In this document: piece by piece, positions 5,376-63,582 of the stretch
How positions within the stretch are numbered: the stretch's first letter is position 1
How the letters are laid out: every line of letters starts with the position of its first letter
Source of the DNA: Ptychodera flava
Lineage: Eukaryota
NCBI RefSeq assembly: GCF_041260155.1
Contig: NC_091937.1
Coordinates: forward strand, 6,640,626-6,704,625
Length of the DNA stretch: 64,000 nucleotides
Direction: 5' to 3'
The notes under the pieces: generated by a model
Database searches by the model: none
Seen by the model: only the letters and a program-made list of their open reading frames with translations
What the model was told of the DNA's origin: nothing
Translations under genes and position numbers: made by a program

Positions 5376-5685
5376 TTAAGGTAGAATGTGCCTTGGCGAC
5401 ATAGTTGACTCAAATTTCTGCAATACTATTCTGATCTTCCACTGTAAGGGCTCATTCTGAAGCTGTTTGTGAAAGAAAAACTTTTACTTTCTTAGTTTTT
5501 TGAAAATCCAACATTTAATGTTTCCCTCACAGAGTTAACACAGGAATGACGGCCATTTTGAATTTCAAATAATGCAAAAATGTTGGGTAATTTGTTTCGC
5601 CAGTTCCAAACTTTGCATGGTGACCCTGATTTTTCGACGTGCATACTACCTGAAGCTCATTTGCATATGAAAAATGACAGAAAAT
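5376..5685 (-). mobile_element. SINE-like ~340-bp interspersed repeat, minus-orientation copy
   Basis: Contains the reverse complement of the family core gaaattcaaaatggctgccatccctgtgttaactctatgg and of the tail ...cacattctaccttaa. Confidence 0.7.
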
Positions 5686-7133
5686 ATTATTGTTATATTG
5701 TTATTTCTTTGAAACTTCAACCAAAAAGTTAGAGTAAGAAGCTGTTTTGAAAAATAGGTCCAAAAAGTGGGATACCTGGGAATGGTGAGATACACGGCAA
5801 AATCTGAAAAAGCTAACTAAGCAGTTTTTCTCTTTCTGCTGTAAGTAAATGTAGCATTGTGTGTCTTCATTGCAGTGTATAATAGATACCCACTTTATTC
5901 TACATACAACTCTAAAGGAGTATTTTCGAAATCTACACTAAAAGAAATTGACTTAATCAATTCCTCAAAAATGTAAATGTTGAAATTTACTACAAAGAAA
6001 TGTGAACTGTGTAAATATGATAATGCAATGTATTTCTGCAAGATTTATCTCAAAGATGAGTGGAATCACTGATTTGTCAATTTCATTTCTTGTTTGCGTG
6101 TAGTTTGTGCAACTGTGGTAAAAATGGCAGTATTCCTTCTGATGATGAGGTACACACCTTATGGACCAATATCGGCAGATCACACCAAAAGATCAGGTCA
6201 TGTTGAATTTAAAAGAGCAAGTGAACTGCAGAGTTATTATAGAAAGTGTACACTGTCAGAGCAAAAACTAGTTCAAAAAAGAAAAGCAATGTTTTTGGTC
6301 TTCAGGCCATTCAGAGTCACGTTGCAAGGCTTGACTAGGTAGGTAAATAATTGTATAAGACTGAGGTGACGTGGCATTTTTACTGGGAAGGGCATTATTG
6401 ATTGACCTGCATACATCTACCCACGGTTACATACCTGTAAAGTTATAAAATTGAAGTTACTGATTACAAGGATCACTCTGATAGCAGTACATGCACTCTA
6501 AAGTTCACATCACATGCAGTTGTGTTTCCTTACATTATGGTTTTCTGCAGTATTAGGAAATAATGGATATATTTGTATATTCCTATAGTTGATAAACGTA
6601 CAAAAAGACTGTTTTTTACACTTCCCATTTCCCATCTAGTGCTGATTGGAATCGTCTTTCACATAGAAGTAAGGTTTTAATTTCAAACCTATTATAACAA
6701 TGGTTTGGTACATAACCTTTTTGTTCTGTTAGCAATCAGTTGGATCTCCACACATGGAAACAGGGTGGAAGTGTTAATATGCAGTTTAATCATAGCTAGT
6801 TTAACATGCTATTCATGGAACTATGTGGCTACAGTTCTGATCTGGACAACTCTTTCTTATCATATGCCTGGTCACTGAAATTTAGATTTACAGAAATATG
6901 AGAATTATATGGCTCAGTCACTTTGGTACAGAAAGACGTGCTGTACTATAGTTCTTTAACCAGTAACCATTTGGTAATAGCACATATTAATAGCACATTC
7001 TGGTAGCTGGGTTACCCTGACCTATATTTTCATCACCAATGGATACAAAATACAAGAAGCATTTTTAGGCACTCCAAGTTTGTGTCTTTCTTGTATATCA
7101 ATGTGTCTTGCAACAAAAAATCAGTATTCTTTT

Positions 7134-8376
7134 TTAGCTCCGCTGTCAGCGACGCGGAGCTTATCAAATAGGTTGATTATCCGTCGTCGTCCGTCGTCCG
7201 TCGTCCGTCGTCCGTCGTCGTCCGTCGTCCGTCGTCGTCCGTCAACAATTGCCTTCTCCTCTGAAACCACAAGTCGAATTGCTTTGAAATTTTATATGCA
7301 GTTCACTTGGGGTGACCTCACTTCAGTTTGTTCAAATCATGGTGAAATTTGCATATTTGTATTTTTGGGGCATTTTTTGGTGTTTTTGGTAAAAAAATCT
7401 TCTTCTCTGAAACCGCTCGTCTGATTGCTTTGAAATTTGATATGCAGTTTGCTTAGGGTGACTTAAACCAGATTTGTTAAAATGGTGGTGAAATTTGCAT
7501 ATTTGTATTTTTAAGGCAATTTTGTCATTTTTGGTAAAAAAATCTTTAAAATCTTCTTCTTCAAAACTACAAGTCAGATAGCTTTTATATTTGGTACATA
7601 TGTCCCTAGGGATGATCTATTTCAGATTTGTTCAAATTGTGCAGAAATATGCAAATTTGCATTTTTAAGGCAATTTTTGCCATTTTTGGTCAAAAAATGT
7701 ATTTCTCAAAAAGTACTGGTCTGACAGTTTTGAAATTTGGTATACAGGTTTCTATAGATGAACTAAGTAATATATATTGAATTTCTGATGAAATCTGTAA
7801 TTTTGTATTTTTTGAGCAATTTTTGCCATTTTTGGTCAAAAATGTGTATTTCCAAAACTACTTATCTGATAGCTTTGAAATTTGGTATACAGGTTTCCAT
7901 AGATGAACTAAATGATATTTATTGAAATAATGATGACATCTGCAATTTTGAATTTTAGGGCAATTTTTCTCATTTTTGGTCAAAAAATGCGTTTCTCGAA
8001 AAGTACTGGTCTAACAGCTTTGAAATTTGGTATACAGGTTTCTATATATGAACTAAGTGTGATATTTTGAAATTATGATGAAATCTGCAATTTTTATTTT
8101 TGGGGGCAATTGTTGCCATTTTTGGTCAGAATATTTTATTCTCAAAAACTACTCATCAGATAGCTTTGGTTGACATGTTCTTAGGGATGATCGAATGTGA
8201 TATATTCAAAGTATGATGAAATCTTCAATTTTGTATTTTTGCAGCTTATTTTAGCCACTTTTTTCTGGCCACTGCATTGAGTTATCAAAGATTTCCACCT
8301 TCTTCATCAACATGTGTCAAAAATAGTTATTCTGTACATAAACACAGCGGAGCTATATCGGCCGCTAGGTCGCTTG
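7134..8376. mobile_element. non-autonomous element, family A: hairpin-forming termini, a (CCGTCGT)n microsatellite at 7181-7243, an internal ~150-bp tandem array (7 units, 7240-8270) and a conserved 3' tail
   Basis: Left terminus tAGCTCCGCTGTcagcgacGCGGAGCT and right terminus ACAGCGGAGCT are inverted. The tail ...ccaccttcttcatcaacatgtgtcaaaaatagttattctgtacataaacacagcggagctatatcggccgctaggtcgcttg recurs at 17020-17115 and 39050-39140. Confidence 0.6.
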
Positions 8377-10029
8377 TTTGAGATTAATAGGGAAACAGTC
8401 TGTACAGCAGAAGTGTACCTATACCACTGGGGTTACATAAAACAGTCTATACAGCAGAAGTGTACCTATACCAGTGGGGTTACATAACAAATGAAATATG
8501 CAAGGTTGTTGGCACAAACTCTACTCTATTGTTAAAGCCAATAAGGGCCTGGGCAGTAATAAGGGGGGGGGGGGCGCCAGGGAAATTCAGAAACTTGGTG
8601 TGTGGAAAATATCGACCCAGCTGACCCCTCAAACTTTTGCATAGAAACAGTGACCTTCCGAAATTCAGTACGCTCCCCTGCCTCCATCATAATGCCAGTA
8701 TATATATAAAAGTGATGATGATGATTATTATTATTAATTATAACAATTATCAGTGAATATAAATTATTTAAAAAACTACATTATACAGTGAAGTAATAAA
8801 CCAGAATATCAAAGTACAATATCAACTTTTCTGCAACACAGAAAAAAAGGACAGCTTGTGACACTAAGTGATCAGTGCCAAAGCTTTTATGTCCAAGGTC
8901 AAAAGGAGGTGTCCCCCCTGATGTACAAACTTTGGTGGCAGTTTAGGTTACTTTTGAGACATGTACTTGGCCTTGAATATGAAAGTACAACATTATAACT
9001 TTCCGGCAACACAGAAAAAAGGGGATCTTTTGTAATAAAAACTGTGCAGTGGTCATTTTAGGGTTGGGAAGGGGAGGTGAAAAAGGATGTTGTCCCCCTC
9101 GCTTTGAAGAAACTTTTGAAAATTTCGCTATTGGAATTGTTTCATTAGATGATATTGGACTATACTTTTAGACATAAGGGGTGTTCAATGCTTGTGACAA
9201 AATGATTAGCTTTATCATGTTTAAAGCAGGTAATTAACATAGGGTCATTTTTATAATTTTCTACTAGTTTCACTTGAGTACTTGAAGAAGCAACATGGGT
9301 GAATAAAGACAGTTAGGGGTGGACCATTTGATATCGGGGGGGGGGGGGTCTGGAAGATTTAAGAGGTTGTACTTTTTTTGTTCAAATTTTTTTTCACTCT
9401 CTGATTACTGGTAACTTTTTTTCTCGCACTCCTCATTTGGATATTTGGATACTTTTTTCCCCAACAACAAATGTACAGTCCTCTTCTGTGTGTGGAGTAA
9501 AATGTTGCACATTAGATAATCAGTTGGAACACAATACTTGTACATATATTTACCATTTACCATCTAACTAACATATGGGAAAACAATTGAGCAACTGATG
9601 AAGGAATTGCACATTGGTTCCGAAACACCATCAGGGAGCCGTCATTATTTATGGCCTGGGGGAGGGGGTCGGAGGAATTTCATCCGAAACGCCAAAATTT
9701 CTAGTAACCACCTCCCCCTCTCCCTGGTAACCATAGTGAATTTGAGTAACCCCCTCTCTGACTCAGAAATTTTGACTGATTCCCCCCCCCCCCACTTAGA
9801 AAAGTTAAATACCAATACATGTATATATAAAATAATACAGCACAAAGTTACAAAAATATACAGATATAAAAGCTGATGGTCTATAACCAGTATCCAACCA
9901 TATAGTATTGTTTAATTTGGATGTGAATCATGACAGGGTTTTCACTAGGATATTTGACTAGACAGAATTTGAAAGTACAGAGGGTAGAACACGCGAGATC
10001 CTGAGGGGAAAAGCATCAGAGGGGCTGTC

Positions 10030-11364: not shown

Positions 11365-11510
11365 TGCCACAGGTGTCTGGAGTTGCCAGTGTAGATAGCC
11401 CTGCGCACATGTCTGTTCCTGGCGTTATACGGCCGTATAACGCCGGGAACACACAGACCTGTACGCAGGGCTACATGTACACTGGCAAATTCAGGCACCT
11501 GTGGTGCAAT
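11365..11510. repeat. ~145-bp imperfect palindrome centred on the perfect palindrome cgttatacggccgtataacg
   Basis: cacaggtgtctggagttgccagtgtagatagccctgcgcacatgtctgttcctggcgttatacgg | ccgtataacgccgggaacacacagacctgtacgcagggctacatgtacactggcaaattcaggcacctgtgg. Confidence 0.75.
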
Positions 11511-14452: not shown

Positions 14453-14814
14453 GTGAGTGGTAACACGTAGGACTTTTTTCAATTACTCGCATGAAAAGTT
14501 TATAAAATATTGCACTGCTGATAACTTTCAATAAATTTCACTCCCAGAGCGCACAAATTTGCATATGAAATGTATGGTGTAGGTGTGCAAATTTGTGACG
14601 AGACTGAAAGCAGAAGAAAATGTTTACATAGCAGGAAAAGATCAAACATTTGGTATTAATTTTTTGCATGTAATTTGTAGGATATTTCACGCAAGTGATA
14701 TGGTACCAACTATTTTTAGAAAATTCAGTATTGCCCACAACCACTTCATGAAAAATATTCACACTAAATGTACACTTCTAATTCAAATTGAGGAAATAGT
14801 CATTTATCAAGGTT

Positions 14815-15500
14815 TTTAGCTCATATTTGGTTTTATATATAAATACCAAAAAGAGCTTATATGATGAGTCTAAATGTCTGTATATTTGTGGGTATGTGCG
14901 GATGTATGTCCGTCACACACAAAGGCTCCCATACCGCCAAAGCTACCGTCTCAGTATTTGGTGTACAGGTAGATGTAGGGGTTGAGATGTGAATTTGTTC
15001 AAATGAACACATCAGTGTCAAAAATGTGCAAATGAGGTAAGAAAAAGCGAAATTCTGAAACAGGCTTGAAACAGGCTTACTCCACTGACTTGAGTCATTT
15101 CCTGTTATTGTCATTGAACTGTTACATATTAACAGACCTGCTCAAACCATAGACAGTAGAGGGGAGGAAGACCGTCAGTAGAGGGGAGGAAGACCGTCTA
15201 TGGTCAAACTGAGGCAGTAAGGGGGCTAGCTGCCTTTCTGCTATGCATGTTGCTAAAGTTGACCTCCAGTACCTAAAGTTTCAGACCTTAATTACTTTTG
15301 TCATTCTTGTTTTTCTGGTTTAAATATTTCTTGTTGTTTTTCTGGTTGTACTGTGCAGAAATCATTGTCATAACATCAACGTAGAATTTTCCTGCACTGA
15401 ACAGATAGAAACAACATTTATTGTTGATCTTTGGTACCCATACTGGTATGTACCAATTCTGATCAAATTTGAGCGACACCGTATAATTGCGGTATTTTTC
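14815..15500. mobile_element. family B non-autonomous element (~690 bp) in PARP4 intron 2
   Basis: Starts ttTAGCTCATATTTGGTTTTAtatataaataccaaaaagagcttatatgatgagtc. It is about 90% identical over its length to 26373-27061. Confidence 0.7.
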
Positions 15501-16538: not shown

Positions 16539-16611
16539 CTAATAAACCACAACAGCAACTTGATGGAAAAAAGAAAACTGCTGCACCAGTATTTAATATA
16601 AACAAAATAAA
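16539..16611 (+). CDS. PARP4: PARP4-like exon 3 (short linker): ANKPQQQLDGKKKTAAPVFNINKIK
   Basis: Acceptor cattgcttctctttcAG and donor AA|GTGAGT. Phase 1 in and phase 2 out fit the flanking exons exactly. It is low-complexity linker with no homology, so splice phase is the only support. Confidence 0.5.
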
Positions 16612-16639
16612 GTGAGTGTTTCAAGTTAATATTTTATTT

Positions 16640-17115
16640 TCTATATTATGAATTCATGAATTATGCATATTTGTATTTTGAAGCTGCAATTTTTGTCATT
16701 TTTGGTAAAAAAATCTTTAAAAATCTTCTTCAACAGTGATAGTTTTGATATTTGGTATACAGGTTTATGAGGATGATCAAAAAGTGATATATTGAAATTA
16801 TATTGAAATCTGCAATTTTGTAGTTTTGGGGCAATTTTTGCCATTTTTGGTCAAAAAATTTGTTTTCTTTAAAACTACATGTCTGATAGCTTTGATATTT
16901 GGTAGACATATTCTTAGTGGTGATCTTAATGTGACATGCTCAAATTATGACGAAATGTTCAATTGTGTATTTTTGCAGCTATTTTTGCCATTTTTGGTCA
17001 GGCCACTCTGAAGTGAGCTGTCAAAGATTTCCACCTTCTTCATCAACACATGTCACAAATAGTTATTATCTACATAACACAGCAACGCTATATTGGCCAC
17101 CAGGCTGCTTGTCAA
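16640..17115. mobile_element. family A copy (2.5 tandem units plus conserved 3' tail) in PARP4 intron 3
   Basis: Units gcaatttttgccatttttggtcaaaaaat...ctgatagctttgatatttggta. Tail atttccaccttcttcatcaacacatgtcacaaatagttattatctacataacacagcaacgctatattggccaccaggctgcttg. Confidence 0.6.
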
Positions 17116-17524: not shown

Positions 17525-17880
17525 TAAGTTAGAACGTGCCTCAGTGACAGATATTTAGATTCTCAAATTTCTATAATTCTTTTCTGATCTACTTCTTGTG
17601 GGGGCTCATTTTAAAGGTTTTGGAAAAAGTAAAAATTTCACTGTCTTAGTTTTTCGAAAATCCAAAATTTCATTTTTCCCCATAGAGATAACACAGTGAT
17701 GGCAGCCATTTTGAATTCAGATATCGCAAAATGTTGGGTAATTTGTTTCGTTAGTTCCAAACTTTGCATGTTACCCCCAATTTTTATTGTTGATCTGGTA
17801 AGAGAATGGTTGAAAGTTTCATTTAGGAAATTTGAACAAAAGTATAAGTCTCTGTCTTTTGAGGCGCATGAGTCAAAATT
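17525..17880 (-). mobile_element. SINE-like family copy (minus), about 200 bp downstream of the PARP4 exon 4 donor
   Basis: Same core (gatggcagccattttgaattc) and tail (gtaagttagaacgtgcctc) in reverse complement. Confidence 0.7.
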
Positions 17881-18419: not shown

Positions 18420-18531
<112 letters not shown>

Positions 18532-23579: not shown

Positions 23580-24182
23580 GTTTGTTCATCTCAATCCCAT
23601 AATTTTGTGTCACAAAGGTGTTTGCTTTTTATTGAAAAAAGTGTATTTCTGTAAATAGATGGCTTTCAGATTCTATGCATACAAGCAAGACACTGCCTTT
23701 ATAAATAATTACACCACACTGTACCAGTAACTTATCACTAACTTTGAGTTTTAGTTTTTTCACTGCAAACGTGCACTGCCAATACAATAGTCAAAGTACC
23801 CGATAGGTTTGTCACTCATTGCAGATATACAGAACCATTTACTTGGTCATGTATTGCCCAACACCCCTAGCAGTTGCGCCACTCCATCAAGTCATCAAAA
23901 TGTAGTGATTTATCTTATTATTGTAAAATAAAGGGATGTACTTAACTGTTTATTCAGTTTCATGAGGTAAAAATGGCTGGGATGGCAAATGTCTCTCACA
24001 AAAGTTTACTTTTTAGTTTGCTCATGTCTGGCCAAATAGAGTCTGGGTAATAAGAAAATATGACTGATACCATTGGACAAACTGCGTTAATGTAGGTAAA
24101 TGTTGGATCAAAGTTTGTATGCCGTATATTCTTACTAAGCCGTGTTGGTCTACTCTGCCTTGCTCAGTGCGCCACCTGTTAA

Positions 24183-24538
24183 GGTAGTTTGAGCCTCGAA
24201 AATGAAATACTTAAAGTTTTGCTCAAACTTTCCTCAAACAAACTTTTAACCATTCTCTTTCAAAATCTAGAAAAAAATCGGGAGTCACTGTGCAAATTTT
24301 GTTACTAGAGAAACAAATTACTCAATATTTTCTGATATTTAAAATTCAAATTGATGGCCAACCCTGTGTTATCTCTATGGGAAAAGTAAAATCCCAATTT
24401 TCACAAAACTAAGCCGGTGAAATGTTTATTTACTCCATAAGCTCCAAAATTAGCCCCCGCAAGTGGTAGGCGAGAAGAATATTGTAAAAGTTTGAGAGTC
24501 GGAATATTTGTCTCCTCGGCCCGGCATGTTCTACCTTT
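24183..24538 (+). mobile_element. SINE-like family copy (plus)
   Basis: Head gcctcgaaaatgaaatacttaaagttttgctcaaactttcctcaa, core gatggccaaccctgtgtta, tail ggcatgttctaccttta. Confidence 0.7.
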
Positions 24539-25285: not shown

Positions 25286-26166
25286 GTACAAAAATATCGG
25301 ATGAAAAAAGAGAAGGCTTTTTTGATGAAGTATATCAGCAATAAACCGCACCCAGTGATGGTATACAATGTGATTTTGACCAGTTCATGACATAGCAAGT
25401 GCATACATGGTATGTCATGAAATGGTCAAAACCAAGTGCTATACTGTCGCTGAGTGTGGTTTATTGCTATTATATCATAACAGTACTATATTGAAATTCT
25501 GGCATGGAACATCAAAGAAGGATTTTGCTCTTGCTGAGAACTCACATGTGCCAACCATGCTTTATCGGGAACATAGCGTGGTTATTTTCACATCTCGACC
25601 ATACAGGTTGCTGTGTTTGTGCCATCAATATATTGATATGATATAATTGATGATATAGGTTTAAATTTAAATTTACGTTTTACATCTGAACAAAACTGTT
25701 AGAGAGATCACATTTTCCATCAATAGTTAAAAATCTAAGATGTAAACTTACAGTAGGATTACAATATGATTTGACGGGACACCAGGCAATCCTACAACCC
25801 TATTGAAGGAATGTGGATAGGGAAATTTTAAAGTTATAAATATCTGTGTTGATGTTCAACATCTTACGATAACTGCTACCTATTATGTACTTACTGACCA
25901 GGGCTTCATTTTCTTGTTGCTCCTGTGCAACTCATACAAAATAATGCAACAAAAATAGATAATATAGATACAATAAGCAATATGATGCCACTACAGGGAT
26001 CTATTGCTTAATTGCCACTCACACCCTTTTTAATTTTCTCTGCAAAGGCTAAAATTATAACTCATAAACTTGAATGGTAAACAGTCAAGTTCATTGCAGA
26101 CCAGTACCTTGGACTATTTTTGAATTATTATGATTTTAATCTCATCAAGAAGTCTCTGCATTTCAG

Positions 26167-26350: not shown

Positions 26351-26372
26351 GTAAGAGTGGAAATATCCATTT

Positions 26373-27061
26373 TTAGCTCATATTTGGTTTTGTATATAAA
26401 TACCAAAAAGAGCTTATATGATGAGTCGGTGGCGTCTGTATGTCTGTATATTTGTCGGTATGTATATACGGATGTATGTCCGTCACACACAAAGGCTCCC
26501 ATACCGCCAAAGCTACCATCTCAGTATTTGGTGTAGAGGTAGATGCAGGGGTTGAGATGTGAATTTGTTCAAATGAACACATCAGTGTCAAAAATGTGCA
26601 AATGAGGTAAGAAAAAGTGAAATCCTGCAAATGTGCAGGAGTGATGGCATGCCAGTAAGAAACAGGCCAACTCCACTGATCTTGAGTCATTTCCTGTCAT
26701 TGTTTATGAACTGTTACATATTAACAGACCTGCTGAAACCATAGACAGTAGAGGGGGGGGGGAAGACCGTCTATACTCAAACTAAGAGGGGCTTGTTTCT
26801 GCTATGCATGTTGCTAAAGTTGACCTCCAGTACCTAAAGTTTCAGACCTTAATTACTTTTGTCATTCTTGTTTTTCTGGTTTAAATATTTCTTGTTGTTT
26901 TTCTGGTTGTACTGTGCAGAAATCATTGTCATAACATCAACGTAGAATTTTCCTCCACTGAACATATAGAAACAACATTTATTGTTGATCTTTGGTACCC
27001 ACACTGGTATGTACCAATTCTGATCAAATTTGAGCAACACCATATAATTGCGGTATTTTTA
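26373..27061. mobile_element. family B copy, beginning 23 bp downstream of the PARP4 exon 10 donor
   Basis: Near-identical to 14815-15500, including ...cctccagtacctaaagtttcagaccttaattacttttgtcattcttgtttttctggtttaaatatttcttg.... Confidence 0.7.
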
Positions 27062-28951: not shown

Positions 28952-28982
28952 GTAAGAATAAAGATTGCATACATATTTCTTT

Positions 28983-29345
28983 TAAGTTAGAACATACCTT
29001 GGGGACAAATAGTCAGACTTTCAAATTCTTTCAAATTTCTACAATTTTTTTTCTGATCTACCACTTATAGGGGCTAATTTTAAAGCTCTTGGAGAAAGGA
29101 AAACTGTCATCGTGTTAGCTTTTCGAAAAATTCAAAATTTAATTTTTCTCCCTAGAGCTAACACAGGGATGGCAGCCATTTTGAATTTCAAATATCACAA
29201 AATGTTTTGTAATTTGTTTCGCTGGTTAAAAACTTTGTACGGTGACCCCCACTTTTTATTGTTGATTTGGTATGAGAATTGTTGAAAGTGTCATTAACGA
29301 AAGTTTGAGAAAAATTTTGAAATCTTTCATTTTTAAGCGCAATAT
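28983..29345 (-). mobile_element. SINE-like family copy (minus), 32 bp downstream of the PARP4 exon 11 donor
   Basis: Reverse-complement tail ttagaacataccttggggacaaatag and core agagctaacacagggatggcagccattttgaatttc. Confidence 0.7.
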
Positions 29346-30332
29346 ACTACCTTAATGGTTGAACATGCCTTGACACATTAAGTGTTTTCCACAGCTTGGA
29401 AAACAGGGGGGGGGGCAACCATTTTACATAACAATGCATAATTTGCATATTCTTTTGTTGTGTAAATAGTATTTTTCTATACAGTCATTAACATATGAAA
29501 ACATTGCTCCAAAACAGTAGGGTAGCCCACCCCTTAAAATACCCTTTTGGAGACCCCTGCACATAGTTTAAACTTTTGCAGTTACTTTAGTCCGGGAAAC
29601 TTTAACTCAGTTTCTTTCATATGACATTTATAAGATCAGCTATAAACTTAGTTGTAATGGGAAAACTAAATTTTTTGTTTTCTCAGAAAATGAGACAATA
29701 CCAACATTATTTACTCCAGTGGCTTAAAAATTAACTGACAAAGGCGACACATCAAAAAAGTATAGCAGTGATTTGAAAGTCTGAAAAGTGCTGTGTGGGT
29801 CCATGTTACCTTGGGGTAGAACATGCATCTCACCAAATCAAGAACATAAATCAGGGGTCGCCATGCAATGTTTGGAACTAGAGAAACAAATTACTACCTG
29901 TATGGATATAGAACTTCAAATTTGCTGCCATGCCCTGTGTTAATTTTATGGGAAAATACAACATTTTTCGATATTTTAAAGGAGACAGTGAAAGTGTTTT
30001 AGCTTCAAGAGCTTTAAAATGAAAGAATGGTAGACTAGAAAAAGTATTAAAACAATTTGAGAGTCCACATATCTTTCTCTGAGCCACATTCTATCTTAAT
30101 GCTGGACTTTCTCACAGCCCCTGGTTTGCTACACAATATGTAGTTACTGTATCATATATTCATACTGTGATATGTCCTCAATGGTCTTCGCAGGCCAGCT
30201 CTATGCCAACTGTGTAGCAACACTACCCCAGCTTGTTGAGAGCCTGGCTATGGTGAGCTCAAAATCAGGGCAGGAAAAGACCACGCTGTGTACAGCCAAT
30301 GTGGGACTTTAGAGAAACTGCTTTAATTTAGT

Positions 30333-30880
30333 TAGTGCCTCAAAATTGAAATACTTCAACCTTTGCCCAAACTTTCCAATAAGGAAATTTTAAATCCCTC
30401 CATTTTGAAATCAAGAATAAAAATCATGGGTAACCATGCAAATTGTGGTAATAGAGAAACAAATTACCCAATATTTATGAAATTCAAAATGGCTGCTAAC
30501 CCTGTGTTAACTCTATGGGCAAAAGTGAAGTCACCTTGCTGAAAGCTTTATTTACTCTGTTAGCTTTGACCCTTTGAGCGCCAAAGTCAATTTCTATCGC
30601 CTTTATAAAATGTACCCAAGTCCAATTTTTTCAAATTTTTGCCAAAATTTTAATGAAAAACTGTAGTCCATGAAATGTGATGTCCGTTTGGACCAAAATT
30701 ATCAAAAAAATTACAGAAAAATTCATAAAAATTGTTAAAATGTTGCACTAAAATTCTGATGTGAAAAATTACAGCACTTAAAAGGTTAAAATGAGCCCCC
30801 ACATATGGTATACCAAAACAGAATACTTAAGTTCCAGAGTCAGAATATCTCGTCCCAGGGCACATTCTGCCTTGATACAT
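30333..30880 (+). mobile_element. SINE-like family copy (plus) split by a nested piggyBac-like MITE at 30566-30789
   Basis: SINE head and core run 30333-30565. The SINE tail aatgagcccccacatatggtataccaaaacagaa...cacattctgcctt resumes at 30790. Confidence 0.65.
30566..30789. mobile_element. second, more diverged copy of the piggyBac-like MITE, inserted at a TTAA inside a SINE copy
   Basis: gctTTGA|CCCTTTGAGCGCC ... GCACTTAAAAGG|TTAAaatga. The interrupted SINE sequence gcttTAAaatga is continuous once the element is removed. Confidence 0.6.
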
Positions 30881-32388: not shown

Positions 32389-32807
32389 GTAAGTTAGGGC
32401 GTCTGAATACTCTGCTTGTCTTTAATAGGGTGTCTGAAACTCTGCTTGCCTTTACTCTTGACAGATAGCTTGTATCTTCATTTATGCTACGTTAAAATGT
32501 AGCTGTGTGTCTCATAGTTTATGTGTCAGTGTGCCTGTCTGTCAGCATTAACACTTTCTAGCGCTTTGTACAAAATCTGTATATCTTTCATTCGCTCTCT
32601 CTTTCCTCTTCAGTCTCTCTGTCTCTGTGCTTTTCTCTTTGTGAAAAGTCATCCATTGTAAGTCTTTCTTCCTTTACCAAGTGGGCAGAACCACAAGAAA
32701 AATATTATTACATGATTGAGTTGATGTCCAATGGATAGACATTTAAGAAATTACATAATATGACCTATCAGAGTATGTAATGTAATATTATATGTATCAT
32801 TAAGGTA

Positions 32808-33155
32808 GTATTACCTCAAAAGTGAAAGACTTAAACTTTTGCCCAAACTTTACTCAAGAAACTTTCAACCATTCTCTTAAGCAATCAAGAACAAAAATAA
32901 CGAGTCCCTCTGCAAAGTTTGGAACTAGGAAACAAATTATCCAACAATTAGTAATACCGGTATCTGCAACTCAAAATGGCTGCCATCCCTGCATAAACTC
33001 TATGGGGCATGAACATTTTTGATTTCAAGAAAATTATGACAGTGAAAATTTTCTTACAGCTTTAAAGTGAACCACCACAAGTGATAGATTAGAATAGGAT
33101 TGAAAAACCTTCAGACTCTCAATCTGTCCCAGACGCATGCATTCAACCTTAATTA
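32808..33155 (+). mobile_element. SINE-like family copy (plus), ending about 45 bp upstream of the exon 14 acceptor
   Basis: Head agtgaaagacttaaacttttgcccaaactttactcaa, core caaaatggctgccatccctgcataaactctatggg. Confidence 0.7.
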
Positions 33156-33199
33156 TTCGGCTGACTACAATTTTGTTCATTTTCATCCTCTGCAACTAG

Positions 33200-35077: not shown

Positions 35078-35170
35078 GTATTTGATTTATATGCCATTTT
35101 CTTGTGTTTTTCAATAGATTTTGAAGCAAATTTAATAGCTACATGAGAAAGTTTTCTACAAAGTTACGGT

Positions 35171-35501
35171 AGTTTGTGCCTCAAAATGAAGACTTAAGCT
35201 TTTGTCAGGCTCTCCTCAAGCAAACTGTCAACCATTCTCTTTCAAAATCAAGAATAGAAATTGGGTGTCACCATGCAAAGTTTGGTATTAGAGAAACAAG
35301 TTATCTTCCATCAAATTGGCTGCCATCCCCGTATTTACTCTATGGGGAAAACAAAATTTCTGATTTTCACAAAACTAAGCTGGTGAAAACTTTATTTAAT
35401 CCATAAGTTTCCACATGAGCCTCCTCGAGTGGCAGGCCAAAAGAATTATTTTGAAATTTTTAGAGTCTGAATATCTTTCCCAGAGGCACATTCTACCTTA
35501 A
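35171..35501 (+). mobile_element. SINE-like family copy (plus)
   Basis: gtgcctcaaaatgaagacttaagcttttg ... ggctgccatccccgtatttactctatgggg ... cacattctaccttaa. Confidence 0.75.
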
Positions 35502-35861
35502 AGCTCCACTAGAGTAACTCTTGATGTATTTTTAATCCTTTATTTGTCCTGCACGTAGAGTACAGTTTCTCATTTCTACTCCAAAAGTCATGTGTAAGTG
35601 CTTTGTGTTCAACAATACAACTCAGCCTGGATATGAGTAATATGCGATGTCACTGGTATTGTTATCATTGTGAATTGTAATCACAACTTTAATTCATTTT
35701 TCCAGATTCATACAAAATGACTTTAATAATGAATCCAACAAAAATGTTTTTGCACTTAGAAATAGACATCTTCCAGTACGTAATTTGAATATTTTAATGA
35801 CACATTATTTTAATGCGGATTCCGAGTGTCATCTGACCTTTGACCTGACTATGTCTCACAG

Positions 35862-37048: not shown

Positions 37049-37390
37049 GTAAGTTGTTGCAGCTTGGCTTATAAACTTTTCTGCTCTCAACAAAGCAGGT
37101 TTTATCAAAAAAAGTTACTCTCTGCTGCTGTTACGGTCTTTAGTCTTTAAATTTCTCTCCACAATACATTTCATAATATGAGATGCCAGTGGTGAGACAG
37201 TACAAGCTTGCCTTACTGAGGATATTTGCATGAAGGCATGCTGTGTATTCTGTGGTGTGTTGGCACCTGGAGTGATCACGAAGAAACGAAATACAGGAGT
37301 AAAGCTTTCAGAAATGTGATATTTTGTATTATTAAAAAGTACATTAAGCGTTGAAATCTTCCCGGCCGAAAGATGTTTCTTTTTTTAAGG

Positions 37391-37741
37391 TGTATGCACC
37401 TCGAAAGTGAAAGACTTAAACTTTTGCTCTAACTTTCCTCAAGGAATCTTTTAATCATTCTCTTTCAAAATCAAGAATAAAAATAGGGGGTCACCGTGCA
37501 AATTTTGGTACTAGAGAAACAAATAACCCAAGATTTACCGATATTAGAAATTCAAAATGGCCACCATCCCTGTGTTAACTCTATGGAGAAAAATAAAATT
37601 TTCGAATTTCGAAAAAGTAAGCCGGTGAAAAGTTTTCTTTCACCAAGAGCTTTAAAATGAACCCCATATGTGGTATATCAGAAGAGCATTGTAAAAGTTT
37701 GAGAGTCCGAACGTCTGTCCCCGAGGTGCGTTCTACCTTAA
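37391..37741 (+). mobile_element. SINE-like family copy (plus)
   Basis: Full-length copy: cacctcgaaagtgaaagacttaaac ... gccaccatccctgtgttaactctatgg ... gtgcgttctacctta. Confidence 0.75.
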
Positions 37742-38000
37742 GTATAATAATAATAGCTTGCATACCGTCATTTTCGTTTTGCTTATAAGATACTTGTTGT
37801 TTACAAACAAAAGTAGTTTGGGGCACAAGAGCTCATTAACATAAGATTATTGTATAATGTTTTCTGTATTGCACTGCAGTGCAAATACCAATTGTACGTG
37901 CACTATTAAAAAGTACAGTGAGCGTTGAAATCTTGCAGACCGAAAGATGTCTCTTTCTTTAAGTAGTATAATAATAGCTTGCATACCGTCATTTTTGTTA

Positions 38001-39290
38001 GCTACTATAGACTATAGTCTATAGAAGCTATGGGATGGGTACCGTCCGGCGTCCGTCGTCAGTCTGTATGTATGTATGTATGTATGTATGTATGTATGTA
38101 TGTCCGTTTGTGAGGCGTCCGTCCACTCAAATATCTTGAGAACCGCAGTACTTACTGATTTGATATTTGTTGTGTAGATGAAAAATACGATTTTGAAACT
38201 ATTTTTTTTAACTTTTTGATATTGTTGAAAATAGGCAAATTAATGCCAAAAAAGGTGTTTTTGGTAAAAAATCTTCTTCTTCATAACCGCTGGTCAGACA
38301 GCTTTGTTATTGGTATACAGGTCCCTAGGGGTAACCCAACTTAGACTTGTTCAAATTGTGATGAAATATGCAAATCTGTATTTTTAAGGAATTTTTTGTC
38401 ATTTTTGGTCAAAATTTGACTTACATTGTATGTAATTCTTGTACTGTATAAACCCTATCAATTCACCCAGAAAAAAATAATTAATATGATTTTAAATAAT
38501 TGAATTAATTAGGAAATCATCAAAGGCAAAATAATTTTAGTGTAGAATTATCAGAAAGTTCAACTTTTTGACGTTTGACAGTTCATAGTGAAATGCTTAC
38601 CATCTTAGAGGATTAAAACATGTAAAGGCAACTTTCCTGAATCCCAACTTTGACATATTCTGAACCGTCATTTATTGTGCCCTGTATGTTATCTCAAAGA
38701 AATTGCTCAAAATAGTCAATAGAGATAGAGATAGAGAAAGTTCTAATTTCCATTTATGGTTGACTTGGTAAGGATAAAATAAAATTACTTTTTGAGGAAA
38801 AAAATAGAGTGGTCAATTAAAAGAGTGGTCAAAGTGATAGGGTTTTTATGGTAAAGCTGGGCTGTACAAAGATTCCTCATGTGCTATTTATAGCAATTAT
38901 GCAATCTGTGTAAACAGTGCAATGAAAGTGTAACATGATTCCTTATAATGCTTTTGATGACCTTGAACTTCTTAAGTTTCAAACCTTTGTCTCTTCAGTG
39001 TGCTTTCTCTGAGTATGTACAGTCTCAACTTATTAAACAGAACTTACAATGTTAATCAAAGATATCCACCTTCTTCATCAATACATGTGTCACAAAAGGT
39101 TATTCTCTACATAACTCAACAGAGCTCTGTCAACTGTTGAGTTGCTTGTTCTTTCAAAACCGCTGGTCAGACAGCTTTAATATTTATTTACTTGTCCGTA
39201 GGATGACCTTAGTGAGATAATTTCATACAGTAAGGAAATACTTAATTTTGTATCCATGTCTATAGTAGCTTCAGGGACTTTGGCCCTATT
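38001..39290. mobile_element. family A copy in PARP4 intron 17: head, (TGTA)n at 38065-38101, tandem units, about 650 bp of unrelated internal sequence, then the conserved tail at 39050-39140
   Basis: ccgtccggcgtccgtcgtcagtc(tgta)n ... ggtaaaaaatcttcttcttcataaccgctggtcagacagctttgttattggtatacagg ... tail aaagatatccaccttcttcatcaatacatgtgtcacaaaaggttattctctacataactcaacagagctc. Confidence 0.55.
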
Positions 39291-40092
39291 CGTTTTTCTT
39301 GTAAGATACTTTTTGTTTACAATGAAATGTAGTCTGGGTCACAAGAGCTCATTAACATAAGATTATTGTATAATGTTTTCTGTATTACACTGCAGTGCAA
39401 ATACCAATTGTACATGCACTCCAATGCAAGTAAACTGTGGTAATACACATATTTTCACCAACCAACAAAATCTTAAACATTCCACCCAGAAATGATATTA
39501 TGAACATGCATTTCCTATACTTTAAACAGAAAACCAACAAGAACCAACTTTTCATTCTCAAAAAAGTCATGAATGTAGATAGAACTACTAATAGAGTAAT
39601 TATTAAACATTTTGTTGATATTCTTTCGGCAAATGAAATATAACCAGTAATGAGTATAATGTGAAGTCTCAAACATTTTTCATATGTTGGCTAGAGCGTG
39701 ATGAATATCTTCAGGAAGCATGTTTTTTACTGTACAATGTTACAGTTATTAGGGTACTGATACCTACACAGCAGAAGTAATTTGTCTGGTGTATTTGACT
39801 ACCGAAATGATGAAAAATCTGTGAGCTAAAAATTTACTGCTTTCAAGTCATTTGTCCAAATTTCCTCATGCAGAGATAGTCCCTTGCCACCGCAGATCGA
39901 CAATTGAGTTGTTCTAAAATTTGCCAGGAAAGTCAAGTATGTCTCTATCAGCACTCATTTACTCAAATTGTATGTAGATGAACATTAGACATAGTAGACG
40001 TAAGCTCAAGGTGGAGAAAGTTTACTTTTCCCCCTGTAGTAATGGTACTTTTAAATTCATTATCTCATTCCTTGCAAATTGCCTTTCTACAG

Positions 40093-40744: not shown

Positions 40745-41073
40745 GTAAAATGTAAAAATTTGCTCTAATTTCCCTAAATGAAACTTTCAACCATATTCTT
40801 ACCAATCAAGAATAAAATCAGGAGTCACTATGTAAAGTTTGGTAGTAGAGGGTGAACCAACAACCTGACATTTACCAATATTTGAAATTCAAAATGGCTG
40901 CCATTCCTAGCTGTGTTAACCTTATGAGGAAAAATAAAATCTTTGATTTAAAAAAAAACTGCAATAGCGAAATTTTTCTTACTGTAAGAGCTTTAAAAGA
41001 AACACCCACAAGAGGTAGATCACAAAATTGTAAAAATTTGAGTCTGATATCTGTCCCCAAGGCTCGTTGAAAG
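40745..41073 (+). mobile_element. SINE-like family copy (plus)
   Basis: aaaatggctgccattcctagctgtgttaaccttatgagg ... ctgtccccaaggctcgtt. Confidence 0.7.
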
Positions 41074-46718: not shown

Positions 46719-46868
46719 TTGAGTGGTGAAGAACTACTCAAGGACTTACTGGAGAAAGCAGAAACAAACCAACGTCTGTCCATCATTCTGCAAGCAGAGA
46801 GAGGCTATCAAGAAGCATATGATGTGGCTGTGAAAGACTTGCCGACAACTCATCCACTCAGACTCAAA
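46719..46868 (+). CDS. exon with a 14-3-3-like segment, in phase (0) with exon 23: LSGEELLKDLLEKAETNQRLSIILQAERGYQEAYDVAVKDLPTTHPLRLK
   Basis: Acceptor ttctttctctgtttgaatgtgaatAG, with an in-frame stop immediately upstream in the intron. Donor AAA|GTAAGC. AYDVAVKDLPTTHPLRL matches the 14-3-3 helix AY(K/Q)(A/E)A..I...(L/M)(P/Q)PTHPIRLG. Confidence 0.5.
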
Positions 46869-47303
46869 GTAAGCATTCTGTTCCCATCTTTCTGCTGTGT
46901 TTCCTCAGATCCAGTATTGTCTATTGCATTTCTTTTGAGACTGGTCCATTTCATTTCTGAATGGGGTAGAACCGACCTTCGTAAGGCTGCAGCACTGGTA
47001 TCAAAGACTTGCCATCCAAATGTAAGAGACACAAAATATGCCAGTAACAGTGTACATGGGGTATTTTGGTGGAGATCAGATTTACTTTACGTTTCATTTG
47101 GTGTACTTGACTCATAAATAAGAATGGAAAGTTATTCTATATCATTTTACAATCAAATAAGCACAACTCATATAATGTCACTAATATTTTTGTCAAAAAT
47201 GATGCTCAAGTTATCTCCTCTACGATCTTATTAGCTCCATGATTTTCTACTTTCCTTCATCAAGTTTTGTTACTGTTTTTGATATCCATCCTTTTACTTT
47301 CAG

Positions 47304-48128: not shown

Positions 48129-48989
48129 GTAAGTCTTTGAAATTATCTTTATTTGTACAAAATATTTGTTTGAAAATATGATTATGGAATATGTTCATGA
48201 ATCAACATATATGGCTTTTATTCCTAATACAAGTGTATTCATTGACAGTCCAGTTGCAGGCAGAGATGTGTATGGTCAGGTTAATTTGTTTGGCAGTCCA
48301 TTCGTTGTATTGTGTATGTATGTGTGTCCTTCCGTATTGAGTCAATACCAACATATGCCAAGACCAACGTCTGTTGAACCGAGTATGAGGAGAGTGCATT
48401 GAGATGCTCACTTAAATGTAATATTGTTCTGCCATTGTATTCAATATGGTATGCCAGGCACCCATTTTGTTGTGATTTATTTCCTTCACATAGTTATGAA
48501 CAAGATATGCCACATATGGCTAGATATGTTCCCTTGAATGTTGAAAGAAAAAGCACACAATGTTACTCTTAATAGTGTATCTGTTTGTGAACTTGTTTTG
48601 CAATACAATCCAAAGTGGTCACTTGTAACCTATGTCCTTGACTTTCTCACTGATACCTCCTATACTAAATCACATTTTTATGTCAACAACATCACTTTTT
48701 AGTGTCCCTGGACTGTGTCCCTGAGGACTTATATAGGTTTGATCATGTCCGTGTGTGGGGGCGTGCTCGCGTGCGTGAGTGCGTCCATTCACGCAGATAT
48801 CTCAGAGATGCCTGGAGCGATTTCATTCACACTCTATTCCAAGATTACTCCCTATGTCATACATGTGCACGTTGATTTGTTTTGTGATCCGATCCAATAT
48901 GGCCGTGTGATGGCCATTTTATTTAAAAAGTGGAGACTATGTCATTGACAATGACTTTTTAAAAAGAGCTCTGTTTCTGGAGCGTGTGA

Positions 48990-49890
48990 TTGCACTAAAC
49001 TTAATAAAACTTTGAGCTCTAAAAGCACACAATGAGGCATGTCAGTATTGCATCAATTAATTGCTAATTTGCACATTTGATGAACTTTTGTAATGAGGGT
49101 GACATGTCCAAAATACTACAGCAAATTTGATGAAACTTGGTAAAGATCTTTAACACACAGTCTCATAATAGTGTACAAAGACATGTAGCAGTGACATGCT
49201 AATTTGCATGTTTGACGAACTTTCCTAATTTGTAAGCTATGTCCAGAAACATTGCATCAAATTTGATGATACTTGGTACAGATGTTGATCTTTCAGTACT
49301 GTAATACTATGTAAAGACATTAAGCAGTATCATGCTAAATGATTGCTAATTTGCATTTTTGGTGAACTTTTATAATTAGTGTGATTTGTATAGAAATGCT
49401 GCATCAAATTTGATGAAAAGTGCTACAGATGTTGATCTCCAGGAGTGTTATGGCATGTAAAGATATGCAGTAGTATCATGTCAATTAATTGCTGATTTGC
49501 ATGTTTAATGAATTTTCGTAATTAGGCTCATATGTCAAGAAATGGTTCATCAAATTTTATGAAACTTGATACAGATGTTAAGCTCACATTGCTTTAACAG
49601 TGAATAAAGACATTCAGCAGTGTCATGTTGATTAATTTGTAATTTTCATATTAGATGAACTTTCCTAATTAGAGTGATATGTCCAGAAATACTGAATCAA
49701 ATTTGATGAACTTGGTACAGATGTTGATCTCAGTACTGTAATACCATTCATTGACACTTAGCGGTATCGTTTATAAAATGTGGTACAGGTGATAATCTTT
49801 CAGTGTTATAGTAGAATGCAAAAATGTTTGGCAACATGCTGTCGATTAATTATTGACTTATTTAATGACCTTTCGTAATTAAGTTGGCAG
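48990..49890. repeat. ~145-bp tandem repeat (about 6 units) in the intron between the 48053 and 50601 exons
   Basis: Recurring ...catcaaatttgatgaaacttggtacagatgttgatct...gcagt.tcatg.t.attaattgctaatttgcat.tttgatgaactttcctaatt.... Confidence 0.7.
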
Positions 49891-50600
49891 CCCATATTGG
49901 TTTAACGTTTTGACCACTATAGAACTTACTCTTAATCACAGACCCAGTTAATGAACAGGACTGTATCCTCTCAAAGAACTTGTAAATCAAAGTACCCATT
50001 AACAAGTGGGGACTGTGTCATCAACAATGACTTGTTATCCCTTTTGTAATCTGTTACTTCATTTTGTGATAATTAACAGAACACAGAAATTTGCTTTTAA
50101 CATAAAAAAACAACCTAAAAATCATCATTATGATTGCAGTTATTGTTTGGATTTTTGTAAGCTTCCAAGGCATCACTGTCATTTTCAGTCCCCATGGATG
50201 AAGTCCAAGGGATTAACAGTTTTGGTCATGTCTGTCCATTTATGCAAGCTGTTTTTGAAGATGCCTGGACCCATTCCTTTCAACAGATCTACATGCATCT
50301 AATTTATAGGTCATGATACATCTTGTGTGGATACCAGGCTGCTGTTTTGTTATGATTACATCTCATGTCCATAGCATTAAAGAGGTATCTGAAATGATTC
50401 CATTGAAACTTTGTAGGAGGACATTGTATAATGGTGATATGGACATCAATTTGTGTTGCTAGAATAATTTCACTAAATGCATGCAAAAAACATTGAAAAT
50501 CAAAACAGGGATTAAGAGCTCCTAAGAAAAATTTGATCCATGTAGACTACGTCAATCAATGATGATTTGTGCATTTCTATTTCATGTATTTTGTTTCCAG

Positions 50601-50695: not shown

Positions 50696-51570
50696 GTAAG
50701 TTTAGTGAATGACTTCCATGCAATTCAATGTGAAGTTATCTAATATTGATAATATCATCTAATTATAAGAGTGCAGGGGAATGGAGCATGGGTTGATGTG
50801 AAAGAGAACTTTTTTGCGGCCTCTAAAATGTTCAAAAGTGTACTCCCCTACTTTTATCACTTTGGGCACAAATTATCAATTATTGGTGTTCAGTGAAAAT
50901 CGAAGGCAGATGTGAATCTGCAGATCGTATTGTCACAAATAAATCTTATAAGCGTGTGTTCATGACTTATGACTTTCAAATTCAATTGAGTTCCTATAAA
51001 TATACATAATCAACAATGTTATTACAGGCATAGCATGTGCATATTTGAAAAAGCTTGAACAAGACAATATGGCTGCCACAACTCTGTAAAAATAACCAGA
51101 AATGGTGGACATAAAGAAGGAGAATCTTGTCAGAGTCACGGAGACATGATGAGATCCGTTGAAACACATGGCAACAGATATTCTCTACAGTGATATTCTA
51201 TTCTCTCTTTCCCTTGCAATATAACAAGTTTTGAAAAAAATTGCAGCAATAAAATGAACATATGCATATTTTATTAATGAGCATTGTTTCAGTATTGAAA
51301 TTGTATGGTAATGATACATGAAGTGATTATTGATAATTAAGTGTGTATAATGATGGTAACAATGCAGATAATTCACGTACCTGGCATGTTGCATGGTATA
51401 AAAATGGAGTGAAAATCATTACAAGTAATTGCCAATTCTGTCAAAAGTGAATGTTGTCACGATGCAGGTAAGGGATGTGTCATTTTGGAATTCAGAGAAA
51501 GTTGAGGAAATTTTGATTTGAATTAATCATTGTGTAGCTCATAGGTCTTTAAACTTTGTGTATGATGCAG

Positions 51571-51857
51571 ATTATGAAGATGAGGTATATGGCATGCTCT
51601 TCATGGACAATGGCTCATTTATGACTGATGTTGGATTTGCTGGCTCTCCACAGCCTAAGGCAACCTTTCCAACAGTTGTTGGCCGTCCCCGTCACCAAGG
51701 TGTCATGGTTGGTATGGGTCAGAAAGACAGCTATGTGGGATTTGAAGCAGTTGGTGGGAAACCAAAGCGTTTCCTGACAGAGGAAAAGTCCGTCTTAGCT
51801 CTAATAAGACGTAAAGCAGGTGAATGCAACGTTGTCAATGGTTCTACTCTGGAATAA
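51571..51857 (+). CDS. terminal exon with an actin-derived segment: (D)[94 protein letters not shown]
   Basis: Acceptor tttgtgtatgatgcAG. [20 protein letters not shown] is 20/20 identical to actin residues 37-56. DNGS, GFAG and FP..VGRP match the actin N-terminus [29 protein letters not shown]. The sequence diverges after codon about 60. Stop TAA at 51855-51857. Confidence 0.55.
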
Positions 51858-63456: not shown

Positions 63457-63466
63457 AATTTTGTGT

Positions 63467-63582
<116 letters not shown>

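Follow-up and report, generated by a model that had tools for sequence, protein, structure and literature searches.

A 64-kb stretch of Ptychodera flava DNA (contig NC_091937.1, positions 6,640,626 to 6,704,625; hereafter the window) carries a PARP4-like gene on its + strand and, in and around this gene, several interspersed repeats with tandem units of about 150 bp. What kind of element these repeats are is the question that the locus raises. An earlier note, made from the sequence alone, proposed satellite-bearing elements of Helitron/Helentron type. The Helentron half of this proposal was supported by subterminal inverted repeats (subTIRs), 5′ hairpins, microsatellites, arrays, and T-run boundaries, and the repeats are very probably non-autonomous Helentron-type rolling-circle transposons of the class of Helentron-associated interspersed elements (HINEs). 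This class is already well described in oysters, clams, and flies, and the copies found here are further members of it. The repeats themselves were confirmed, with matches well beyond chance expectation, though several coordinates and the grouping required correction. The HINE features published in PMC4067079 and PMC7492417 were each looked for, and most were present. HINE-type elements occupied approximately 11.6% (7.4 kb) of the window, which is AT-rich with a G+C content of ~35%.

The element used as the anchor, denoted A1, had been placed at 7134–8376, which was right to within 3 nt (7136–8379). It is composed of the following parts, where TRF is Tandem Repeats Finder and IR is an internal inverted repeat.

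7130–7135, + strand: run of six Ts forming the 5′ boundary, by sequence reading; target and element terminus are indistinguishable in it
7136–7146, + strand: 5′ subTIR of 11 nt, AGCTCCGCTGT, an exact 11-mer
7154–7161, + strand: IR GCGGAGCT, a partial complement of the 5′ subTIR, forming the 5′ hairpin
7180–7243, + strand: left-flank microsatellite (CCGTCGT)n (TRF; periods 7, 10, and 17)
7253–8261, + strand: central array of seven ~146-bp units (TRF; nhmmer E = 5.5e-24 to 1e-34)
8262–8379, + strand: right flank (3′ tail, 118 bp) ending in GCTTGTT(T), by alignment with two other tails
8344–8354: 3′ subTIR ACAGCGGAGCT, the exact inverse of the 5′ 11-mer

The 11-mer AGCTCCGCTGT occurred only twice in the 64 kb, at 7136–7146 (+) and 8344–8354 (−), exactly in both cases, and its 3′ inverse sits 25 nt from the T-ended terminus. 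A DNA fold of 7136–7165 gave −11.1 kcal/mol (z = −4.1), a stability that was reached by 1 of 200 shuffles. The seventh unit is shortened at its junction with the tail, and the 3′ fold of A1 was weak (z = −0.9). We read the microsatellite, the reverse complement of which is (ACGACGG)n, as one of the ACGG/ACGA and GTCY motif class of the literature. The other copies, all identified in the same window, are as follows.

16642–17113, + strand: A2, 5′-truncated, with 2.3 units (nhmmer) and an A-type tail 82% identical to that of A1 over 217 columns
38000–39297, + strand: A3-outer, complete, with the second terminus type (subTIR pair, hairpin, nhmmer units, and empty-site paralogue)
38000–38012, + strand: 5′ subTIR of A3-outer, AGCTACTATAGAC
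38017–38029: IR of A3-outer, complementary to the subTIR with one mismatch
38040–38103: GTC-rich and (TGTA)n microsatellites of A3-outer, the (TGTA)n part at 38065–38103 by TRF
38266–38405 and 39149–39253, + strand: units of A3-outer (nhmmer)
39258–39270: 3′ subTIR of A3-outer, exact inverse
39293–39297, + strand: terminal T-run of A3-outer
38420–39150, + strand: A3-inner, nested in the array of A3-outer, with an A-type 3′ tail ending in GCTTGTT and a 5′ end that is not canonical
57011–58540, + strand: A4, B-type termini with four A-type units (alignments, fold, nhmmer)
57011–57023, + strand: 5′ subTIR of A4, AGCTCACATTTGG
57028–57040: IR of A4, forming the hairpin
57069–57108: (TGTA)n of A4 (TRF)
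57276–57860, + strand: four units of A4 (nhmmer)
57861–58418: unmatched DNA in A4
58419–58540: B-like tail of A4, with the 3′ subTIR at 58505–58517, ending in GACGGTATTTT
14818–15499, + strand: B1, without an array, in a PARP4 intron (alignments, fold); subTIR AGCTCATATTTGG, imperfect IR at 14845–14857, 3′ end GCGGTATTTTT
26375–27060, + strand: B2, second full B copy (alignments)
59167–59320, + strand: B3, 5′ fragment of B-type with the left flank only; 59162–59317 is 91% identical to B1 over 156 columns
48701–50036, + strand: family C, a T-run then AGTG..., left flank TTAT..ATAGGTTTGAT homologous to A1, and a GT/GTC-rich tract
49062–49747: array of family C, 4.7 units of 147 bp (TRF), the element having a 3′ palindrome GTCATCAACAATGAC followed by TTGTT and an extra solo 3′ end at 48925–48960
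58570–58892, + strand: decayed fragments of the unit family just past the 3′ end of A4 (nhmmer E = 1e-8 to 2e-2)

Complete copies shared a common layout. A T-run is followed by an 11–13-nt subterminal repeat starting with AGCT, whose complement lies 4–15 nt downstream and gives the 5′ hairpin. Then come a short conserved spacer, TTAT..ATAGGYTGA, which was recognisable after the hairpin in A1, A4, and C, a GTC-rich and/or TGTA microsatellite, 0–7 units of ~146 bp, and a right flank in which the inverse of the 5′ repeat lies 22–27 nt inside the T-ended 3′ terminus. This left-flank plan was common to five types. The subTIR pairs matched at 11/11 positions in A1 (7136, 8344), 13/13 in A3-outer (38000, 39258), and 11/13 in A4, and the 5′ hairpins beat their shuffles with z-scores of −4.1 (A1), −3.7 (A3), −7.2 (A4), and −4.3 (B1), only 0–2 of 200 shuffles being as stable. 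Such folds against shuffles were computed for each element instead of a crude scan for AGCT plus an 8-nt hairpin with one mismatch allowed, which was not discriminating (6 matches versus 2.9 expected). The conserved 3′ tail that had been proposed was found in three copies, where the 19-mer TCCACCTTCTTCATCAAYA occurred 3 times versus 0.01 expected, and the 5′ motif said to be shared by family B, AGCTCAYATTTGG, was exact at four sites (14818, 26375, 57011, and 59167). TRF also confirmed the microsatellites reported at 7180–7243, (CCGTCGT)n, and at 38065–38103 and 57069–57108, (TGTA)n. The two palindromes described as terminal, agctccgctgt...acagcggagct and ctcacatttgg...ccaatgtgag, both exist but are of different kinds: the former is the long-range subterminal pair of A1 (7136/8344), and the latter is a local 5′ hairpin.

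Sharp boundaries were observed at both ends. For B1, B2, B3, and A4, the T-run plus AGCTC marked the exact onset of similarity, and the sequences upstream of it were unrelated. A-type tails stopped at GCTTGTT, again with unrelated flanks beyond, and B-type tails stopped at GGTATTTT(T). A T-rich run directly preceded AGCT/AGTG in 6/6 5′ junctions, and the AGCT motif, which the note had supposed to be terminal, is terminal at all six. The 3′ ends took the form GCTTGTT, CGTTTTT, or GGTATTTT(T); Ts close six of the seven, and a T-to-C change is present in the remaining one. The count of flanking Ts varied between junctions, and the first base past the terminal T-run was G, C, or A. Target-site duplications (TSDs), the absence of which had been suggested as a check, were not seen, and the inverted repeats are placed asymmetrically, the 5′ one being terminal and the 3′ one lying 22–27 nt inward of its end.

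The insertion of A3-outer could be examined against a paralogous site in its own neighbourhood, which involves the following two features.

37742–37904, + strand: T1+R, an older solo 3′-end fragment (40 nt) with its right flank, the paralogous "empty site" of A3-outer
37963–37999, + strand: T2, an older 3′-end fragment abutting the 5′ end of A3-outer in a tail-to-head junction

A second copy of T1+R is split into T2 and R′ (from 39298), and the 1298-bp A3-outer stands between the two halves. A chimera joining 37945–38000 to 39296–39445 was colinear with 37725–37925 across the junction, with ~91% identity over ~165 bp. The uninterrupted paralogue lies 250 bp upstream, and the break falls in the T-run, with only Ts repeated. 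This colinearity shows A3-outer to be a discrete insertion with a terminal AGCT motif and without visible duplication of target sequence other than Ts. Its insertion point coincides with the T-ended terminus of an older copy, which gives the tail-to-head junction. The surrounding duplication (37742–38000, 39298–39420; ~91%) comprises the 40-nt older HINE 3′ end and 130 bp of flank, the latter ending in a perfect 16-nt palindrome, TTGCACTGCAGTGCAA. It may have arisen by tandem duplication, or by read-through of the 3′ end with transduction.

The central array was next compared unit by unit. Both strands of the window were searched for the unit family by nhmmer, and all 23 unit matches lay on the + strand, in the same orientation as their flanks. 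The tandem units of about 150 bp described earlier are ~146 bp long, with seven in A1 and nhmmer E-values down to 1e-34. In the identity matrix of a 15-unit alignment, the last units were closest across copies: the seventh unit of A1 and the second unit of A2 were 81% identical and each other's best match. The third unit of A1 and the first of A3 were 80% identical, units four to six of A1 were 83–86% identical to one another, and the remaining pairs were 55–75% identical. Because the identity between copies is position-specific, the order of unit variants was inherited with the element, and the array travels with it. A position-specific pattern of unit variants was likewise reported for DTC84 (PMC3879986). 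The mutual resemblance of units four to six shows that the middle units were amplified in place.

Some of the copies listed above differ in extent or composition from the earlier description. The copy at 16640–17115 was found (16642–17113), but it is 5′-truncated; it has no 5′ part, and its units lie at 16654–16994 (nhmmer). The element at 38001–39290 was likewise found (38000–39297), but it is a composite rather than a single copy, including the nested piece at 38420–39150. Around this piece, the host array is cut where one unit finishes and continues from model position 11 of the next (nhmmer). This interruption and resumption, together with the A-type tail inside, identifies A3-inner as a second element that sits in register within the units of A3-outer. 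Its 3′ stem, CTCAACAG/CTGTTGAG, is 8 bp long (z = −2.6). For the copy said to span 57010–58990, the true end is at 58540, and 58570–58892 is a separate decayed fragment, a remnant of another copy. Two stretches inside HINE copies, 57861–58418 (~560 bp) and 38420–39040 (~620 bp), had no match elsewhere in the window and no Pfam match, and may represent host sequence that was captured, or further nested repeats. Within the former, 57927–57956 is 77% complementary to part of a unit.

The division into families A and B, both carrying internal satellites, did not hold. Family B lacks an array and retains just a weak remnant of a single unit, at 14955–15005 in B1 (nhmmer E = 0.09), with a degenerate GTCT/GTAT microsatellite. 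The identity of B1 with B2 (14813–15499 versus 26370–27060) was measured as 87% over 722 columns, somewhat below the ~90% given before. The first 250 bp and last 120 bp of A4, the copy starting at 57011, match family B, and by its termini this copy is therefore grouped with B, though it carries four A-type units. Grouping by termini is the rule for Helentrons (PMC4067079). The unit family and the left-flank plan are common to at least three terminus types, namely AGCTCCGCTGT (A1), AGCTACTATAGAC (A3-outer), and AGCTCAYATTTGG (A4, B1–B3), and three types of 3′ tail are combined with them. Family C (AGTG...) is a probable fourth terminus type, which shares the left-flank plan and has its own 147-bp unit. 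It is probably a further element of this kind, partly characterised here, and stands as a candidate without a demonstrated subterminal inverted-repeat pair; its tails formed 5–6-bp stems (z = −0.4 and −1.5). The hairpin arms vary by type on both sides (CCGC/GCGG, ACTATAGAC/GTCTATAGA, and CACA/TGTG), and the 3′ repeat follows them.

A1 type: 5′ repeat CCGCTGT, hairpin partner GCGG, 3′ repeat ACAGCGG
Second type: 5′ repeat ACTATAGAC, hairpin partner GTCTATAGA, 3′ repeat GTCTATAGT
Third type: 5′ repeat CACATTTGG, hairpin partner CCAATGTG, 3′ repeat CCGAATGTG

The three sequences differ among types and are mutually complementary within each. This joint change suggests that the ends are read as a structure or as matched recognition sites, a suggestion that comes from three or four types and is not a statistical test. 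The occurrence of several terminus types with one unit family and one left-flank plan indicates recombination of the modules, accompanied by a concerted change of the hairpin arms and the 3′ repeat.

These features can be set beside known systems. The definition of HINEs in Drosophila, mosquito, and mite (DINE-1/HINE; Thomas et al. 2014, PMC4067079) comprises subTIRs of 12–15 bp, the 5′ one terminal and the 3′ one set back, an IR 3–22 bp from the 5′ one, a microsatellite, central repeats, and a 3′ stem-loop; targets are TT or T-rich, with variable numbers of terminal Ts and no target modification. The copies described here resemble these elements in these respects, except that a 3′ stem-loop was significant in one tail only. 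They differ in that autonomous partners with 95–98% identical ends were identified in those species, that the 3′ subTIR of mite HINEs lies 38–60 bp from the end as opposed to 22–27 nt (PMC4067079), and that the DINE-1 "core" sequence is absent here. Similar agreement was found with Cg_HINE of Crassostrea gigas (Vojvoda Zeljko et al. 2020, PMC7492417; Repbase Helitron-N*_CGi), which has an 11–12-nt subTIR with a complementary IR of 7–12 nt located 1–12 nt away, a left-flank microsatellite that is often GTCY, GTCC, or GTCK, and central satellite-like repeats of 140–180 bp, including a 147-bp cluster, usually 2–5 per array and in fixed orientation. Its right flank consists of a subTIR and a palindrome, its targets are T-rich or TT without TSDs, differing flanks are joined to related repeats, and copies and deletion derivatives occur in introns (PMC7492417). 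Unlike the one-strand arrangement observed here, Cg_HINE was reported in both orientations (PMC7492417), and the 3′ palindromes here are mostly weak. The "tandem-repeat-containing MITEs" (miniature inverted-repeat transposable elements) pearl of Crassostrea virginica and DTC84 of Donax trunculus share an (ACGG/ACGA)n microsatellite, that of A1 being, in our reading, the reverse complement of this class, an 11-bp inverse motif with one terminal and one subterminal copy, and a fixed order of core-repeat variants with a truncated edge repeat (PMC3879986). Their description as MITEs with an AA TSD predates the Helentron link, and DTC84 has a conserved 12-nt palindrome in its core repeat that was not seen here (PMC3879986).

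The description of pearl and DTC84 as MITEs with terminal inverted repeats (PMC3879986) leads to the alternative that the present repeats are such elements, moved by a cut-and-paste (DDE) transposase that leaves a 2-bp TT/AA TSD. The 11–13-nt inverted repeats near both ends would agree with this, as would the Ts on both sides of every copy, which are readable as a TT duplication in the manner of the putative AA TSD of DTC84 (PMC3879986). However, the repeats are asymmetric, and the 3′ one is followed by 22–27 nt of family-specific sequence; the number of flanking Ts varies, and no duplication other than Ts was seen. Moreover, elements of like architecture in flies and mites are tied to Helentron partners with 95–98% identity and show no target modification (PMC4067079), and an empty-site analysis of Cg_HINE found no TSD (PMC7492417). 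We regard cut-and-paste MITEs as improbable on these grounds. Canonical Helitrons, the other half of the earlier proposal, begin with 5′ TC, end with a hairpin 10–12 nt before a 3′ CTRR, and insert between A and T. Non-coding sequence, hairpins, a lack of TSDs, 5′-truncated copies, a tail-to-head junction on an older end, and presumed rolling-circle mobilisation in trans are common to them and the present elements, and are general rolling-circle behaviour. The diagnostic ends are nevertheless missing: TC after A was found in 0/6 5′ ends, all of which are a T-run plus AG, and CTRR in 0/7 3′ ends, which finish in GTT, GTTT, or a T-run. The A|T insertion context fails, as expected for Helentrons, since the base past the terminal T-run is G, C, or A and not the T left by an A|T insertion, and subterminal inverted repeats are a feature of Helentrons, not of Helitrons (PMC4067079). 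A canonical Helitron origin is therefore very unlikely.

Equally little credence is given to a non-mobile origin, in which pieces of a dispersed satellite were spread by segmental duplication or recombination and the edge palindromes arose by chance. Old and diverged units (55–86% identical), fragments without ends (16642–17113, 58570–58892), and the local duplication beside one copy (T1+R versus T2+R′) speak for it, whereas the sharp and identical boundaries of independent copies in unrelated flanks, the exact 11- and 13-nt inverse repeats at the expected places, the strong hairpin z-scores, the clean insertion of one copy relative to its paralogue, and the spread of B copies without an array speak for mobility. 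As short, non-coding, abundant, and intronic sequences, the repeats could also be taken for short interspersed element (SINE)-like retroposons with internal tandem repeats, but ARAGORN detected no tRNA-like head, there were no Rfam matches, no A-rich 3′ tail is present, the T-run ends lie on the same strand as the 5′ hairpin, and no variable-length TSDs were seen. This origin is scarcely credible. Several points weigh against the assignment to Helentron-type HINEs itself. The 3′ stem-loop after the 3′ subTIR was significant only in the A3-inner tail (z = −2.6), while z ranged from −1.05 to +0.07 in A1, A2, A3-outer, A4, and B1; the B-type 3′ subTIR matches at only 10/13 positions, a level of matching for which chance accounts in the window (52 found versus 42 expected). 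The A1-type 5′ end was seen once, its boundary being drawn by analogy and from the exact inverse repeat. The empty site is a diverged paralogue (~9%), not an orthologous allele, and the sample is small. The putative link to Rep/helicase is one of architecture, with no autonomous Helentron of matching termini in the window, and likeness to named families (Repbase Helitron-N_CGi, pearl, DTC84) was set by descriptions, not by sequence.

Consistent with non-autonomous elements, the copies encode no protein, as judged from frames and Pfam in the window. Among all frames of at least 75 aa, the longest being 199 aa, Pfam detected no Rep, helicase, or endonuclease domain, only those of the host PARP4 and fragments of actin and 14-3-3. 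Protein searches gave no homologues for the spurious open reading frames spanning B (107 aa) and two A units (94 aa). A metagenome scan with the tail 19-mer gave chance matches: among those listed, whole-element BLAST aligned just 21–29 nt around the seed. Scans of viral contigs with the B/A4 hairpin motif and the unit motif found nothing, and a full-text literature search for the terminus and unit strings returned unrelated primer matches only. An autonomous Helentron encodes an HUH Rep and a Pif1-like helicase, usually with an AP-endonuclease, and shares the subTIRs and the last ~60 bp with its non-autonomous relatives. By analogy with the literature on the class, the Rep/helicase(/endonuclease) of such a Helentron elsewhere in the genome would mobilise the present elements in trans. 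The protein would be guided by the terminal hairpin and the subterminal repeats to nick the adjoining T-run, after which one strand would be peeled off up to the 3′ signal and re-inserted between the Ts of a T-rich target without target duplication. We infer that in an intermediate with joined ends, the 3′ and 5′ subterminal repeats might pair across the junction, which would place the T-run in a hairpin loop.

All HINE-derived pieces, at least 11 in number (7136, 14818, 16642, 26375, 37742/37963, 38000, 38420, 48701, 57011, 58570, and 59167), lie on the + strand, in the same sense as the PARP4-like gene. For 11 independent events, a two-sided binomial test gives ~0.001. An unrelated SINE-like family of the window, described below, has copies in both orientations. 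If chance or copying within the locus did not account for the pattern, strand-specific integration or retention of Helentron-type elements, over at least 11 insertion events of three to four terminus types and different ages, would be indicated, an explanation that we consider possible but unlikely. Such elements might integrate into a single strand laid open during replication or transcription, as is known for bacterial HUH transposons. An asymmetry of poly(A) signals as the cause was rejected, as 7 were counted on + and 11 on −, which gives no explanation.

The host gene was recognised by Pfam on open frames, all of its domains lying on the + strand in the order BRCT, PARP_reg, PARP, VIT, VWA.

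~14.2 kb, + strand: BRCT
~22.6 kb, + strand: PARP_reg
~26.1–26.35 kb, + strand: PARP catalytic domain (PF00644), exon end at 26350
~32.1–33.4 kb, + strand: VIT
~36.8–40.4 kb, + strand: VWA

When the joined exons were used as a protein query, PARP4 proteins were retrieved, the best named matches being Crassostrea gigas fragments with 63–67% identity, a figure that refers to the PARP4 VIT region. The best PARP4 relative with DNA (79% identity, VIT exons) was considered as a source of empty sites and proved useless, as it is a compact gene of a different organism. Two HINE copies start ~20–30 nt from exon donor sites (16540–16612 versus 16642; 26350 versus 26370), which indicates that such insertions are tolerated very close to splice sites. 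A2 starts ~30 nt past a probable donor at ~16612. The T-run of B2 is 19 nt past the donor GT (26351) of the exon for the PARP catalytic domain, and B2 itself starts 19–24 nt past it, in agreement with the 23 bp given in the note. Downstream of the PARP4 VWA exons, an actin N-terminus (PF00022, E = 3e-6) and a 14-3-3 segment (E = 1e-3, under the family cut-off) were detected as isolated frames at 51522–51854 and 46719–47114; they are probably pseudogene or retrocopy fragments.

The window contains further repeats of other kinds. A SINE-like family of ~330–350 bp, starting with TTAAGGTAGAAYGTGCC, has at least 11 copies with 66–80% identity on both strands, and ARAGORN found no tRNA-like head in it. 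These copies were located as follows.

5376–5634, 17525–17869, 24178–24515, 28981–29355, 29835–30099, and 30323–30532: SINE-like copies
32800–33156, 35164–35503, 37385–37745, 40753–41068, and 53130–53301: remaining SINE-like copies

Adjoining a SINE-like fragment, 53278–53565 consists of six copies of a 48-bp unit, and their 98% identity marks a young minisatellite. A 2-kb block at 60344–62350 is a 117-bp satellite of ~11 units, part of which (60604–61401) is inverted. It shows a higher-order period of 352 bp (93%) and internal subrepeats of 20 bp, and it is bracketed by a direct repeat, GCTCGCTACCTGTAGACCATGCC, at ~60230 and ~62487. This block (60.3–62.35 kb) was considered as a further HINE-type element and rejected, since no HINE-like ends were seen. 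Four foldback stretches of ~140–155 bp with 76–88% complementarity (11367–11504, 25331–25474, 59681–59830, and 63317–63472) look like palindromic elements of MITE type, and (TA)n tracts of 54 and 56 units lie at 18422–18528 and 63470–63582.

The elements are of little importance beyond annotation, in which they are best masked as Helentron-derived repeats and not read as regulatory or structural features. They illustrate the known link by which rolling-circle transposons seed satellite DNA, one ~146-bp unit family occurring here on several terminus types. If the strand-specific behaviour were true, the all-plus orientation and the copy inserted at the 3′ T-run of an older copy would offer a handle on the uncharacterised mechanism of Helentrons. 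The joint change of the 5′ repeat, hairpin partner, and 3′ repeat across the types amounts to a small natural experiment.

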